Assembly (NCBI GenBank): GCA_963737085.1
Contig: CAVTRR010000005.1
Location: 173,409 to 237,408, forward strand
DNA from: an uncultured delta proteobacterium
GTDB lineage: Bacteria; Myxococcota; Myxococcia; Myxococcales; Anaeromyxobacteraceae
Direction: 5' to 3'
Length of the DNA: 64,000 bases
Positions 28,715 through 36,915 of this stretch are shown here, piece after piece. The notes below the pieces were generated by a model. It was not told the DNA's origin. It made no database searches and saw only the letters and a list, made by a program, of their open reading frames with translations. The position numbers were made by a program, and so were the translations under genes. Every line of letters begins with the position of its first letter. The stretch's first letter is position 1.

Positions 28715-30784
28715 TCAGCAGGGCATCTCGGCCTTGCGGCGCGAGTAGAACCACCAGGTGACGGCGAGGCAGGACACGTAGACGGCGATGAAGCCGAGGA
28801 ACGCCGCCGCCGGGCTGCCGGTGGACTTCATCGAGACGCCGAACGCGCGCGGGATGAAGAAGGCGCCGTAGGCGGCGATGGCGGAGCTGAAGCCGAGCAC
28901 CGCGGCCGCCTCCTTGGCGGCGTCCTTCTTGCCCTGCTCGCGCGCGGCGGCGCCGCGCCCCTCCGCGAGCCGCTCGTGGTGGGTCGAGAAGATCACCGGG
29001 ATCATGCGGAACGTGGAGCCGTTCCCGACGCCGGAGGTCGCGAAGAGGAGGAGGAACATGGCGAGGAAGCCGGGGAAGCTCCCGCCCGCGCCGCCCTCGG
29101 GGAGGAAGGCCAGCACGCCGCCCGCCGCCGCCGCCATGGCGACGAAGTTCCAGAAGGTGACGCGCGCGCCCCCCAGCTTGTCGGAGAGCCAGCCGCCCAC
29201 CGGGCGCACGAGGGCGCCCACGAGCGGGCCGAGGAACGCGTAGCGGATGGGATCGATGCCGGCGAACTGTGTCTTGATGAGGAGCGGCAGCCCGGCCGAG
29301 TAGCCGATGAAGGAGCCGAAGGTGCCGACGTACAGCCAGCACATGATCCAGTTGTGCTTGCGGCGGAAGACCACCGCCTGCTCGCGGAACGAAGCCTTCG
29401 CGCTCGCGATGTCGTTCATGCCGAGCCAGGCGGCGGCCGTCGCCGCGAGGACGAACGGCACCCAGACGAACCCGGCGTTCTGCAGCCAGAGCAGCTCGCC
29501 CGTCTTCGCCACCGTCTGCGGGCCGCCGCCGAGGCCGCGGAACACGCCGGCGGTGATGACCAGCGGCACGAGGAACTGCATGCCGGAGACGCCGAGGTTC
29601 CCGAGGCCGGCGTTGAGGCCGAGCGCCGTGCCCTTCCTCGCCTTGGGGAAGAAGAAGCTGATGTTGGCCATGCTGGAGGCGAAGTTCCCGCCACCGAGGC
29701 CGCACAGGAGGGCGAGCACGAGCATGGTGCCGTAGGACGTGGTCGGATCCTGCACCGCGAACCCCATGCCGAGCGCGGGGAGCACGAGCGAGGCGGTGGA
29801 GATCACGGTCCACATCCGCCCGCCGAAGATCGGCACCATGAAGGAGTAGAAGATGCGCAGCGTCGCGCCGGACAGGCCGGGGAGCGCGGCGAGCCAGAAG
29901 AGCTGATCGGTGCTGTACGGGAAGCCGATGGCGGGGAGCCGCACCACCACCACGCTCCACACCATCCAGACCGCGAAGGAGAGGAAGAGGGAGGGGATCG
30001 AGATCCAGAGGTTCCGCGTCGCGATGGCGCTGCCGGCCGACTCCCAGAACGCGCGGTCCTCGGGGTTCCACGCGGTGAGGACGCGGCCCTCGCCGCCGGC
30101 GGCGGGCGCCTCCGCCGCGGTGCGGTCGCGGTTCCACACCACCACCTGGAACGGCCGCCACAGGTAGCCGAGCGGCACCGTCAGGGCGTGGACGAGGCGC
30201 GAGAAGGGCAGGAGCGCGAGCAGGACGAACGCGCTCACGGCGTGGAACTTCACGAGCGTGGGGAGCACGCCGGCGAGCTCGACGCGGGGGGCGAGCGCCA
30301 CGAGCGAGCCGAGCCAGGGGGCCGCGGTGTGGAGGAACCAGACCGATCCCCAGCGCAGGCTGAGGCCGATCCAGGTCCCGGTCGCGACCTGCGCGAGGAG
30401 GAGGGCGAGCACGAGCCAGTCCAGCCGCGTCGTGACGACGCGCAGGCGCGGGCTCAGCGCGCGCCGGACGAGGAGGAGCGCCACCGAGAAGGTGGCCCAG
30501 AGGCCGAGGGCGATGCCGGCGATCTCGACCGCCACGAGGCGGCGCGGGTCCGCCACCAGGGCCCCCCACGCGCCGGGCGCGACCGCGGCGACGAGGTGCG
30601 CGAAGAGGATGGCCAGGATGGCGTAGTGCCACGGCACCGAGCCCCAGAAGAGCGCCTTCTTCTCGAGGAACTCCGAGGAGCGGGTGCCGAGCGTCGTGGG
30701 GTAGCGGCGCCGGGCGGCGATGCCGACGCCCGCCACGGCGAAGGCCGCGTAGGGGAAGACGCCGAAGAGGAAGAGCTCGTTCAT
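28715..30784 (-). CDS. narI: Fusion of nitrate reductase gamma subunit (NarI) and a NarK2-type nitrate/nitrite transporter
   Basis: First ~225 aa NarI with four haem-ligand His (PWHY, FAHL, KFHA, LVHA) ending RPFQVVVWN; then in frame WNPEDRAFW, RNLWISIPSL, GGGNFASSMANISFFFP, ATSGVGNGSTF. Confidence 0.88.
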   Translation of the reverse strand: MNELFLFGVFPYAAFAVAGVGIAARRRYPTTLGTRSSEFLEKKALFWGSVPWHYAILAILFAHLVAAVAPGAWGALVADPRRLVAVEIAGIALGLWATFSVALLLVRRALSPRLRVVTTRLDWLVLALLLAQVATGTWIGLSLRWGSVWFLHTAAPWLGSLVALAPRVELAGVLPTLVKFHAVSAFVLLALLPFSRLVHALTVPLGYLWRPFQVVVWNRDRTAAEAPAAGGEGRVLTAWNPEDRAFWESAGSAIATRNLWISIPSLFLSFAVWMVWSVVVVRLPAIGFPYSTDQLFWLAALPGLSGATLRIFYSFMVPIFGGRMWTVISTASLVLPALGMGFAVQDPTTSYGTMLVLALLCGLGGGNFASSMANISFFFPKARKGTALGLNAGLGNLGVSGMQFLVPLVITAGVFRGLGGGPQTVAKTGELLWLQNAGFVWVPFVLAATAAAWLGMNDIASAKASFREQAVVFRRKHNWIMCWLYVGTFGSFIGYSAGLPLLIKTQFAGIDPIRYAFLGPLVGALVRPVGGWLSDKLGGARVTFWNFVAMAAAAGGVLAFLPEGGAGGSFPGFLAMFLLLFATSGVGNGSTFRMIPVIFSTHHERLAEGRGAAAREQGKKDAAKEAAAVLGFSSAIAAYGAFFIPRAFGVSMKSTGSPAAAFLGFIAVYVSCLAVTWWFYSRRKAEMPC

Positions 30785-32785: not shown

Positions 32786-35700
32786 CTAGAAGCGCGGCTC
32801 GCCCTCGAGCTTCCGGACGAGGACGTAGGTGTCGCGGTTGTTGCCGGTCGGGCCCCAGTAGTTGAAGCCGTAGGTGAACTGGCCGTAGCCGCCGAGCATG
32901 AGGGTCGGCTTCAGCCGCACCCGCGCGAGGCTGTTGTGGCTGCCGCCGCGCTTGCCGCCGCGCGAGGGGGCGCGCGGTACGGAGATGGTCCGCTCAGGCG
33001 CGTGGTACTGGATCGCCATCCCGGTCGGCACGCGCGCGCTCACCACCGCCTTCGTGACGACGACGCCGTGGTCGTTCACCACCTCGACCCAGTCGTCGTC
33101 GGCGAGGCCGAGCCGCGCCGCGTCCTTCTCGCTCACCCAGAGCGGGTGGAGCCCGCGGGAGAGCGTGAGCATCCGCAGGTTGTCCCCGTACGTGGAGTGG
33201 ATGTTCCACTTGCCGTGCGGCGTGAGGTAGTTGAGCCGGATCGAGCGCCCGTCGTTCCGCGTCTCGACGAGGTCCTGCACGAAGGACGGATCGCAGCGCG
33301 GCTTGTAGGTCGGCAGCGCCTCGCCGTGGGCGAGGTAGCCGGGGTGGTCGAGGTAGAGGTGCTGGCGGCCGGTGAGGGTCCGCCACGGCACGAGCCGCTC
33401 CACGTTGACGGCGTAGGCGGTGTAGGTGCGCCCCTCGTCGATGATGCCGGTCCAGCACGGCGAGTTCAGGATGCGCCGGGGCTGGCGCCCGAGCGCGTCG
33501 AAGTCCATGCGCACGTCGCGGCTCTTCTCGGCGAGGTCGGCGAGCGGGAGCCCGACCTTCTTCTCCTCCGCCTGGAAGGCGCGGTACGCCATCTCGCCGT
33601 TGGTCTCGGGCGCGAGGCGGAGGACGAGGTTCGCCGCCTCGACCGCCGTCGCGACCGACGGGTAGGTCTTCCCGCCCCAGGTCCGCGACGGGCCCTTCGC
33701 CGCCAGCTCGTCCCAGGCGTCCTCGATCGGCCAGGAGAGGCCGTGCGCGCCGATGCCGCCCGCGCGCGCGGCGGGACCGAAGGAGGTGAACCGCTCGTGC
33801 AGGTGGGCGTAGTCGCGCTCGACGAGGGCGAGCCCGGGCATCGTCTTCCCGGGGACCGCGGCGCACTCGCCCTTGCGCCAGTCGCGCAGCTCCGGCTCCG
33901 CCATCTCGCCGGGCGTGTCGTGCTGGATCGGGACCGTGACGAGGTCCTTCACCGGCTCCGGCAGGTGCCGGCGCGAGAGCTCGGTCACCTTGCGCGCGAG
34001 CGCCTCGAACGCGTCCCAGTCGCTCTTCGACTCCCAGCACGGCGGCACCGCCGCCTGCAGCGGGTGGATGAAGGTGTGCAGGTCGGTGGTGTTGAGGTCG
34101 TCCTTCTCGTACCAGGTGGCCGCCGGCAGCACGAGGTCGGAGTAGAGCGCGCTCGTGTCCATCCGGAAGTTGAGGTCGACGACGAGATCGAGCTTTCCCT
34201 TCGGCGCCTGCTCGCGCCAGACGACCTCGGAGACCGACTCCTTCGCGGTCTCCTTCGCGATCGAGGCGTCGTCGGTGCCGAGGTAGTGGCGCAGGAAGTA
34301 CTCCTGCCCCTTCGCCGAGGAGGAGAGGGCGTTGCCGCGCCAGATGAGGAAGACGCGCGGCCAGTTCTCGGGCGCGTCCGGGTCCTCGACCGCGAGCTTG
34401 AGCTTCCCGTCCTGGAGCTGCCGCACGACGGAGGAGAGGACCTCCGCGTCGCCGGCCGCGCCGGCGGCGCGCGCCTCCTTCACGACGTCGAGCGGGTTCC
34501 GGTCGAACTGCGGGAAGAAGGGGAGCCAGCCCCGGCGCACCGCCCGGATCTGGTGGTCGATCGTGTGCCCGTCGACGAACGGGCCGTCCGCCGGCGTCGG
34601 GTTGAGGCGCCGCTCGTCGCTCGTCCGCTCGTAGCGCCACTGATCGGTGTGGACGTAGTGGAAGGAGGGCGTGTTCTGGAAGCGCGGCGGGCGCCCCCAG
34701 TCGAGCGCGCCGGCGAGCGTGGCCCACGGCGCGACGGGCGCGAGCTTCTCCTGCCCCACGTAGTGGTTCAGGCCGCCGCCGTTCTTCCCGACGCACCCGG
34801 TGACGAGGAGCGCGGTGATCGCGGCGCGGTAGGTGAGGTCGGCGTGGTACCAGTGGTTCACGCCGGCGCCGATGAGGATGGAGCACTTGCCGCCGGTCTT
34901 CTCGGCGGTGGTCGCCCACTCGTGCGCGAACCGCACCACGTCGGCGCGGTCGACGCCGGTGAACCGCTCCTGCCAGGCCGGCGTGTACGGGATCTCGGCG
35001 TCGTCGTCGCCCGACGGCCAGGCGCCGGGCAGGCCGCGCGAGACCCCGAACTGCGCGAGGAGCAGGTCGTAGATGGTCGTGACGGTGGCCGGGCCGGAGG
35101 CCGTCTCGATCACCTTCACCGGCACGCCGCGGCGGAGCGTCCGCCCCTCGGCGAAGTCGGAGAAGGTCACCTCGCGCACGCCGTCGTGGCCGCCGAGCAG
35201 CGAGAGCGCCGGCTCGAGCGGCTCGCCGTCGAGGCCGTCCTTCATCTGCAGGTTCCACTCGCCCTTCTTCGACTGCCAGCGGAAGCCGAGCGAGCCGAGC
35301 GGCATGCGCGGCGCGCCGGAGCGGCCGTCCCAGACGACGTACTTGAACCCGGCGTTCTCCACCGCGGCGGTCCGCGCGAGCTCGGAGGCCTTGAGGAGCC
35401 GCCCGGGCGCGAGGGCGCCGTCCCGCTCCTCCAGCCGCACGAGGAAGGGCGCGTCGGTGTAGCGGGAGAGGTAGTCGGTGAAGGCGGGCGCCTTCCCCGC
35501 CGCGTGGAAGTCCCGGAGGATGACGTGCACCGCCGCCATCCAGAACGCGCCGTCCTGGCCGGAGTGGACCGGGATCCACCAGTCGCCGTGCTTCGACGTG
35601 ACGCTCAGGTCGGGCGAGAGGACGACGAGCTTCGCCCCGTCGTGCCGGGCCTCGGAGAGGAAGTGGGCGGAGGGGGTGCGGGTGACGTCGGGGTTCGACC

Positions 35701-36406
35701 CCATCGCCACCACGTACTTCGAGTGGTACCAGTCGGCGGTCTCCGCGACGTCGGTCTGCTCGCCCCAGGTCTGCGGCGAGGCGTTCGGCAGATCGCAGTA
35801 CCAGTCGTAGAAGGAGAGGTTCACGCCGCCGAGGAGCTGGAGGAAGCGCGAGCCGGCGGCGAAGGAGAGCATCGACATCGCCGGGATCGGCGAGAAGCCG
35901 ACCACGCGATCGGGCCCGCGCGTCTTCACGGTGTGCACGATGGACGCGGCGACGATCTCGAGCGCCTCGTCCCAGGTCGTGCGGCGCAGGCCGCCCTTGC
36001 CGCGGGCGCGCTGCCAGCGGGCGCGCGCCTCCGGGTCCGACACGAGCGCCGCCCACGCGTCCACCGGGTCGGCGTGGGCCGCCCGCGCCGCGCGCCACGC
36101 GTCGGCGAGGGCGCCGCGGACGTAGGGGTACTTCACGCGCAGCGGGCTGTAGAGGTACCAGGAGAAGGAGGCGCCGCGGGCGCAGCCGCGCGGCTCGTAC
36201 TGCGGGACGCCGCCGATCGTCGGGTAGTCGCGCGCCTGCGTCTCCCAGGCGACGATCCCCTCCTTCACGTGGACGTTCCACGAGCAGCCGCCGGTGCAGT
36301 TGACGCCGTGCGTGGACCGCACGACGCGGTCGTGCTGGTTGCGGCGCCGGTACAGCTCCTCCCAGCGGCGGGACTGCGGGCTCACGATGTCGCGGATCCA
36401 GCTCAT
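32786..36406 (-). CDS. narG: Respiratory nitrate reductase alpha subunit
   Basis: [14 protein letters not shown]...EPRGCARG (FS0 ligands), [37 protein letters not shown]; no Tat signal, so cytoplasm-facing. Confidence 0.96.
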
Positions 36407-36915
36407 GGCGTCCTCCCGCCGGCGGCGGCGCGCGCGCGCCGGCCGGCTCCGCGCTTCCCGACGAGGAGGACGGCGGCGAGGAAGAGGCCCATCGCCGCCG
36501 CCACGCCCCCCGCGTACCCGGCCCCGAGCCTCGCCGCCGGCGCCCCCCTCGACTCCCCGAGGAAGGCGACGAGATCGCCGCGCTCCTCCGCCGTCACCGC
36601 GTGGCCGCGGTAGACCGGCTCCATGCTCGGGAAGACGATGTCCTCGAGCATCGCCTCGAGGCCGTCGGCGCCGAACTGCGCGTGCGCGGCGGAGAGGTCG
36701 GGCCCGAAGCTGGCGGCGCGCGCGAGGCCGTGGCCCGCGATGCCGTGGCAGGCGAGGCAGGGAGCGCCGCCCGCGACGAGCCGCGTCGACCCGACGTAGA
36801 GCCCCTCGCCGCGCCGCGCGTCGGGCGCGCGAGGCGGGACCGCGTCGGCGGCGCGGGTGGCGAGGGGCAGGGCGGCGAGGAGCGCGAGCAGGAGCGGGCG
36901 GACGGCGTCGGCCAT
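36403..36915 (-). CDS. Membrane-anchored monohaem cytochrome c (NarC-like), first gene of the nar operon
   Basis: Signal peptide, CLACH haem motif, GPDL, candidate distal Met (FPSM), C-terminal TM; overlaps the narG start. Confidence 0.85.

Follow-up and report, generated by a model that had tools for sequence, protein, structure and literature searches.

A single reading frame for the nitrate reductase subunit NarI and a NarK2-type antiporter in a nar operon of Anaeromyxobacter

Nitrate Reductases and Their Transporters

Nar enzymes that face the cytoplasm depend on a transporter, and the idea that transporter and enzyme form a physical unit has been hinted at only by pull-down experiments in Pseudomonas. 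In Escherichia coli (NarGHI, NarK and NarU; PDB entries 1Q16; 4JR9, 4U4T, 4IU8) NarI and NarK are two polypeptides, and their genes belong to different transcription units. Here a gene is described, narI::narK2, in which members of the same two families, with the same haem ligands and substrate arginines, form one chain inside a nar operon. The gene is located in a 64,000-nucleotide stretch of DNA from an uncultured delta proteobacterium of the Anaeromyxobacteraceae (GenBank assembly GCA_963737085.1, contig CAVTRR010000005.1, positions 173,409 to 237,408), which is called the window below. As in E. coli, the NarG of this operon is of the cytoplasmic type, so that nitrate import and nitrite export are needed.

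Fusions that involve NarI-like or NarK proteins have been described in other bacteria. NarX of Mycobacterium tuberculosis, the 'fused nitrate reductase' of the narK2X operon, is comprised of NarG-, NarJ- and NarI-like segments and has no transporter. Both NarX and the product of narI::narK2 are Nar-subunit fusions with a NarI-like part, and both are genetically linked to narK2. Unlike NarX, the window's fusion joins a transporter; NarG- and NarJ-like segments were not found in its open reading frame (ORF), in which Pfam gives only Nitrate_red_gam (PF02665) and MFS_1 (PF07690).

The NarK of Paracoccus denitrificans and P. pantotrophus is a NarK1-NarK2 fusion (Wood 2002 and Goddard 2008, cited in PMC5217062). 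In PMC5217062, net nitrate uptake is assigned to NarK1 and nitrate/nitrite exchange to NarK2, and experiments are described as suggesting that the role of the linker is 'solely to tether'. There, as in the window's protein, a variable cytoplasmic linker connects a transporter domain with a functional partner, and the NarK2 half of the window's protein is 73-75% identical to two NarK1-NarK2 fusions (P0115 and P0119). The partner in Paracoccus, however, is an N-terminal transporter, NarK1. In the window it is a redox subunit, and NarK1 has a gene of its own downstream. The N-terminal domain of the fusion is NarI, so the Paracoccus-type architecture is absent. Both parts of the NarI-NarK2 fusion are well known, and its logic resembles that of the NarK1-NarK2 fusion.

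In Pseudomonas aeruginosa, unfused NarK2 co-purifies with a NarGH-containing denitrification complex (PMC5658584), which favours the view that reductase and transporter operate next to each other. That supercomplex is non-covalent and was obtained by pull-down through NorC, with NarI not recovered (PMC5658584), whereas the association in the window's protein is covalent.

No paper on a NarI-NarK fusion was found among about 8.4 million full texts (subscription literature was outside the scope), nor was any relevant work on the nar genes of Anaeromyxobacter. A sequence-only reading of the window had noted that it knew of no characterised fusion of this kind. This agrees with the absence of a published description, but the protein itself has long been in databases under one-sided names: fused proteins have been public since the genome of Anaeromyxobacter sp. 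Fw109-5, annotated either as 'NarK family nitrate/nitrite MFS transporter' or as 'respiratory nitrate reductase subunit gamma'. As a result of such annotation, surveys of gene content may score these genomes as devoid of narI or of narK. These Anaeromyxobacter are soil and paddy-field bacteria studied for nitrogen turnover.

The Fusion Gene and Its Two Domains

The narI::narK2 gene is a single stop-free ORF of 689 codons followed by TGA, on the minus strand at window positions 28715-30784. One NarI-NarK frame of about 690 codons had been proposed by the sequence-only reading, which left the strand unstated; the NarI part with four haem histidines and the tail RPFQVVVWN, as well as the linker, occur in the translation exactly as it quoted them. 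The plus-strand frame over the same positions is also open. Its translation is rich in Arg, Gly and Glu and meaningless, as is usual at 74% GC, and it was rejected. The fusion is almost certainly real.

The first 217 residues belong to the NarI family. Pfam Nitrate_red_gam matches residues 4-217 with an E-value of 1.1e-53 and 182.5 bits (cut-off 22.9), and the match spans nearly the whole profile, from position 2 to 216 of 217. In the sequence search of the PDB, residues 4-215 were paired with E. coli NarI (1q16_C, E = 2e-18). Alignment with 3egw_C and 1q16_C places H53, H63, H181 and H199 of the fusion on the haem ligands H56, H66, H187 and H205 of E. coli NarI. By this homology, the NarI half is predicted to bind haem b, to oxidize quinol and to anchor NarGH. 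The fusion holds the sole NarI-family (PF02665) domain of a genome of 5.1 Mb in 12 contigs that is 99.97% complete. NarGH therefore has no alternative anchor, and if the nitrate reductase works, the fusion is its anchor.

The remainder of the protein, beyond a short tether, is a NarK. Pfam MFS_1 is found on residues 266-603, and the NCBIfam model of the NarK family, TIGR00886, matches residues 257-641 with 338.6 bits (cut-off 311.7). E. coli NarK (4u4t) is matched by residues 231-685 with an E-value of 1.8e-153. The narrower model of the NarU subfamily, NF011608, gives 523.5 bits for this half, below its cut-off of 836. Both signature motifs of the nitrate/nitrite porter (NNP) family are present, GGGNFASS at residue 364 and SGVGNGSTF at residue 584, and the earlier description of this half as a full NarK with both motifs was correct. 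The substrate arginines R310 and R527 (R89 and R305 in E. coli) are invariant in an alignment of 51 sequences (A1). Nitrate/nitrite exchange is the activity predicted for the NarK half, and both halves are very probably functional. A second NarK2 was not found elsewhere in the window's genome.

The Junction

Across the junction, the translation reads YLWRPFQVVVWN, ending in RPFQVVVWN, followed by the tether RDRTAAEAPAAGGEGRVLTA and then by WNPEDRAFW. From V216 to M274 the frame contains no intervening ATG, GTG or TTG codon, and the linker has no Shine-Dalgarno sequence of the GGAGG type. About 40 residues, comprising the NarI tail, the tether and the segment of NarK preceding its first helix, separate the last NarI helix from the first NarK helix.

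The fusion is absent from other members of the genus. The operon of these split relatives is the same, but it contains narI and narK2 as two genes, narI being the immediate upstream neighbour. The closest stand-alone NarK proteins, which come from metagenomic relatives and are 85% (P0069) and 80% (P0072) identical to the NarK part of the window's protein, are encoded in narGHJI-narK2-narK1 operons with a separate NarI of 224-227 residues. The spacer between the two genes is TGA-CCG-ATG, an ATGA overlap or 8 nt. In three genomes (G007, G015 and G003) narI and narK2 are in one frame, separated by AGG-TGA-CCG-ATG, or by TGA-TCG-ATG in G003; the corresponding loci are L014 (G007:C1, ~2450090-2450140), L015 and L018. 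The genes in one split case are only nine bases apart (the stop, one codon and ATG). In four others (G021, G001, G004 and L021) GGAGG or AGGAG precedes an ATG that overlaps the narI stop or closely follows it. Taken together, a Shine-Dalgarno sequence of the GGAGG type is present in every split relative and in none of the fused clades. The fused genes lack the stop, ribosome-binding site and start that the split ones possess, which indicates that the fusion was formed by loss of these elements between translationally coupled genes.

A single base change would fuse narI and narK2 at a junction of the G007 type. Read-through of the TGA in such genomes could already yield some fused protein.

The tether differs among the fused proteins. 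In the window's group it is made of about 12-25 Ala/Pro/Gly-rich residues. The group of Fw109-5 and A. oryzae has a different 30-residue sequence and an altered NarI tail. The tether of a third genome, G002, is 45 residues long, three codons shorter than the in-frame split junction of the G007-type genomes.

The Same Fusion in Other Genomes

Proteins that carry both Nitrate_red_gam and MFS domains, for which the sequence-only reading had suggested a search, form about 50 clusters of 686-707 residues with 61-92% identity. They include proteins of Anaeromyxobacter sp. Fw109-5 and A. oryzisoli. In a six-frame search, the uninterrupted fusion was found in 11 of the 36 other genomes of the genus. 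In all, at least 12 genomes of the genus have it, among them the complete genomes of the isolates Fw109-5, A. oryzae Red232, A. oryzisoli, A. soli and A. terrae. In the clade of the window's protein, where identity of the NarK part is 78-93%, all 47 sequences are fused, six of them being N-terminally truncated and scored from their PF02665 match with the junction unread. Outside the family but within its order, 24 genomes were searched and gave no NarK match.

A wider search was conducted at the DNA level. The pattern consisted of the NarI motif P-x-[ST]-R-L-x-H, 27-47 codons, and the NarK motif W-x-P-E...W...N-L-W-I, and was scanned over one genome per species of 185,579 species. It was narrow, as the motifs had to be exact, and it misses divergent motifs and long-linker fusions such as that of G002. 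Twelve loci were found. Eight are fused and all of these come from Anaeromyxobacter or from metagenome-assembled genomes (MAGs) labelled 'delta proteobacterium', with the same junction sequences; the scan added A. soli SG29, A. terrae SG22, A. oryzisoli SG63 and the closed chromosome of A. oryzae Red232 to the carriers of the fusion. The other four loci are split and belong to two Anaeromyxobacteraceae MAGs and two Planctomycetota MAGs. In the latter two (L022 and L028) narK starts within a few codons after narI, as a separate gene in a different frame, and the open frame of narK is unusually long, with 538 residues from the W-x-P-E motif onward.

Two protein searches were less informative. 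None of the best 150 representatives in a library clustered at 50% identity spans both domains, and this search may be silent because the fused proteins sit in clusters represented by a stand-alone NarK. A search with the NarI part that was limited to long candidates returned 45 close relatives only and missed even the Fw109-5 clade, and tells little about distant taxa. Ten representative matches with N- or C-terminal extensions were scanned and turned out to be other fusions or fragments. Among the other NarK fusions are proteins with an N-terminal Rieske_2 domain, which is NirD-like (P0201, 577 aa), an N-terminal CbiX domain (P0252, 532 aa) and a C-terminal CarboxypepD_reg domain (P0207, 691 aa).

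Genomes of the Fw109-5 type (G023, G018, G008 and G033) gave one query match each, and a NarK1-type paralogue was absent at E <= 1e-8; Nar may be served in these genomes by no NNP transporter other than the fused protein. Two regions of the genus are broken. At G012:C4:1201782-1203783 the narI-narK region lies in six pieces in different frames, in a genome that is 56% complete, and at G001:C26:269851-270517 NarI is divided between two frames. Both cases reflect either gene decay or faulty assembly.

Number of Origins

The distribution of fused and split genes was examined on trees of the two domains, which count changes of state and do not separate gains of the fusion from losses. In the maximum-likelihood tree of the NarK domain, four fused groups are interleaved with split genes, corresponding to four changes of state. 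A single fused clade was recovered in none of 200 bootstrap trees of this domain, and holding the fused genes together on the NarK tree is rejected by the approximately unbiased test (p = 1.4e-13). The tree of the NarI domain has three changes of state, of which no fewer than two are required by its well-supported branches. As judged from the sequence trees, a minimum of two independent changes is secure, and three or four are likely on the same basis.

Predicted Structure

The AlphaFold2 (AF2) model of the fusion has a mean predicted local distance difference test score (pLDDT) of 81.8, and both domains are folded confidently. Its helix pattern, in which the helices were not counted separately, is consistent with five and twelve transmembrane helices. 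The pLDDT falls below 50 over residues 200-231, comprising the NarI tail and the tether, and is 34-42 in the tether. In Foldseek comparisons the NarK part superimposes on 4u4t, 4jr9 and 4iu9 with target-normalised TM-scores of 0.94-0.96 and root-mean-square deviations of 1.5-2.1 Å; over these alignments it is 50-54% identical to the E. coli NarK structures.

In the E. coli structures that have been solved, the C-terminus of NarI and the N-terminus of NarK both lie in the cytoplasm. A direct join of the two consequently needs no extra helix, and the compatible topology put forward in the sequence-only reading stands.

Explanations for the Fusion

The best overall explanation, to which a probability of about 0.6 is given, is that narI::narK2 is an inherited translational fusion encoding a bifunctional NarI-NarK2 subunit. 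The product would be a polypeptide of about 73 kDa with some 17 transmembrane helices, made and left uncleaved. Its NarI domain, of five helices and two b haems, would oxidize menaquinol and act as the membrane anchor of the cytoplasmic NarGH, and its NarK2 domain, of twelve helices, would take up external nitrate in exchange for internal nitrite. A flexible cytoplasmic tether, about 20 residues long and lacking sequence conservation, would join the two. The gene would have originated when the stop, the Shine-Dalgarno sequence and the ATG between adjacent narI and narK2 were lost via a point change or a small deletion. By construction, there would be one antiporter per nitrate reductase complex, within a few nanometres of it, and nitrate would enter and nitrite exit beside the funnel leading to the NarG active site.

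Exported nitrite would then pass to the periplasmic NrfA. The window's genome has two genes for this cytochrome c552 nitrite reductase, outside the window and with about 1 kb between them (G000:C4:599588-603059). NrfA enzymes are periplasmic, and their presence in the genome provides a destination for exported nitrite. NarK1, encoded by the next gene of the nar operon, would stay free and account for net nitrate uptake.

Several observations weigh against the bifunctional subunit as described. The AF2 monomer shows no fixed interface between NarI and NarK (predicted TM-score, pTM, 0.66), and the C-terminal tail of E. coli NarI is packed against NarH (1Q16). The NarI equivalog model TIGR00351 gives 94.8 bits, just below its cut-off of 105.55; this near miss is a matter of divergence and not of another family. 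Closely related operons work in the split state, so that the fusion is not required for function. Finally, its persistence could be due to a ratchet, as discussed below. With a flexible tether and no predicted interface, the fusion guarantees equal numbers of the two domains and their proximity on the nanometre scale, but not a rigid geometry.

It is plausible that such proximity improves flux or lowers cytoplasmic nitrite, and the transport-reduction metabolon inferred in the sequence-only reading is a reasonable idea of this kind. The co-purification in P. aeruginosa and the tether of Paracoccus make a benefit of this kind plausible by analogy, and neither is evidence on the window's protein. 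That the fusion was selected for such a benefit can be put forward tentatively, with the odds leaning against it. A still broader rule, according to which NarK2 normally docks beside NarI, so that import, reduction and export are one physical unit that selection has fixed covalently more than once, is doubtful. The same doubt applies to the suggestion, part of that rule, that covalent fixing of the NarK2-NarI contact would, for instance, protect the cytoplasm from toxic nitrite.

The main rival, a serious one although less likely than not, is a neutral fusion that is hard to reverse: the loss of a few spacer bases would cost nothing and rarely be undone. Several of the observations above agree with such a ratchet. 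The two genes are already adjacent, co-translated and topologically compatible in the split relatives, their spacers are tiny, and the fused and split operons are otherwise alike. Tethers vary both in length and in sequence and are of low complexity, the missing interface in the AF2 model fits as well, and several changes of state have occurred inside one genus. Re-splitting would need a stop, a ribosome-binding site and a start together. Because the loss is easy and its reversal hard, neither the recurrence of the fusion nor its persistence needs an advantage. On the other hand, the fused state is unbroken across the clade of 47 sequences and in a second, deep clade, and in the two Planctomycetota MAGs with a similarly tight adjacency of narI and narK both pairs are split, the motif scan that found them being narrow. 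Were fusion freely neutral at any such adjacency, one might expect fused examples beyond the genus.

An improbable alternative is that the one ORF gives rise to two products, either by cleavage in the tether or by translation of NarK2 from an internal start. Proteases would have access to the tether, given its predicted disorder, but it contains no known cytoplasmic processing site. As to an internal start, the sequence-only reading had found neither stop, start codon nor Shine-Dalgarno sequence at the junction. This is true of the linker, but three in-frame GTG codons (V214-216) are located at the end of NarI, the third of them preceded by a weak GGTG. These codons, however, encode part of the conserved NarI tail, QVVVW, and are not kept as GTG in relatives. 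The fused linkers were scanned for a Shine-Dalgarno sequence with a start and contained no convincing one, and the GGAGG type that occurs in every split relative occurs in no fused clade.

An assembly artefact or a decaying pseudogene, in which a missed base hides a stop or frameshift between narI and narK2, might be suspected because long spurious open frames are common in high-GC genomes, and it is effectively excluded by the same in-frame fusion in dozens of independent assemblies, closed isolate genomes included, by a continuous in-frame signature of G+C at third codon positions (0.99 in NarI, 0.95 in the tether and 0.98 in NarK, with one frame throughout), by the retention of every catalytic residue in both halves and by a linker alignment in which relatives differ in length by whole codons only.

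A bifunctional NarI-NarK2 subunit would be open to study by means of a natural pair of fused and split genes, which has arisen at least twice in one genus and of which cultured sister species keep the genes apart. The comparison of fused and split states would test the effect of proximity on the rate of nitrate reduction, on nitrite leakage and on fitness. If the doubtful general rule were true, species that already exist, some fused and some split, would provide the means of proving that bacterial respiration employs a transporter-enzyme metabolon.

The nar Operon of the Window

Six genes are tightly packed on the minus strand, narI::narK2 being the fifth, in the order cytochrome c-narG-narH-narJ-narI::narK2-narK1, with ATGA overlaps at three of the junctions. 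The coordinates are collected in Table 1.

Table 1. Domains of the narI::narK2 fusion and genes of the surrounding operon, in window coordinates
Feature	Coordinates	Strand	Remarks
narI::narK2 fusion gene	28715..30784	minus	ATG at 30784 overlaps narJ stop (ATGA)
NarI domain, residues 1-217	30134..30784	minus	PF02665; five predicted transmembrane helices; conserved tail YLWRPFQVVVWN
Tether, residues 218-237, RDRTAAEAPAAGGEGRVLTA	30074..30133	minus	Ala/Pro/Gly-rich; predicted disordered
NarK2-type nitrate/nitrite antiporter domain, residues 238-689	28718..30073	minus	TIGR00886; E. coli NarK match
Monohaem c-type cytochrome, 170 aa, first operon gene	36403..36915	minus	One CLACH motif
narG, 1206 aa, cytoplasmic type	32786..36406	minus	Begins MSWIRD
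narH, 482 aa	31326..32774	minus	Fer4_11 and Nitr_red_bet_C
Chaperone gene in narJ position, 182 aa	30781..31329	minus	ATGA overlap at each end
Separate NarK1-type NNP transporter, 472 aa	27272..28690	minus	MFS_1; 24 nt downstream of fusion gene

The last gene of the operon encodes the separate NarK1 that the sequence-only reading had placed after the fusion. Its product shares 45% identity with the NarK1 half of the NarK1-NarK2 fusion P0119 and 26% with the NarK2 half, and reaches 205 bits with TIGR00886, below the cut-off. The product of the gene in the narJ position has no Pfam match at E <= 0.01. In one relative (L021) the gene in this position carries PF02613 (Nitrate_red_del), and the window's gene is probably a divergent narJ. 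No twin-arginine translocation leader was seen at the N-terminus of NarG.

The cytochrome encoded by the first gene has a signal-like N-terminus and a C-terminal transmembrane anchor, and the stop of its gene overlaps the ATG of narG. It matches Pfam Cytochrom_C weakly (E = 0.001, 20.8 bits, cut-off 21.3). The gene occupies the position that the dihaem NarC has in operons of the Thermus type, yet its product carries a single haem motif.

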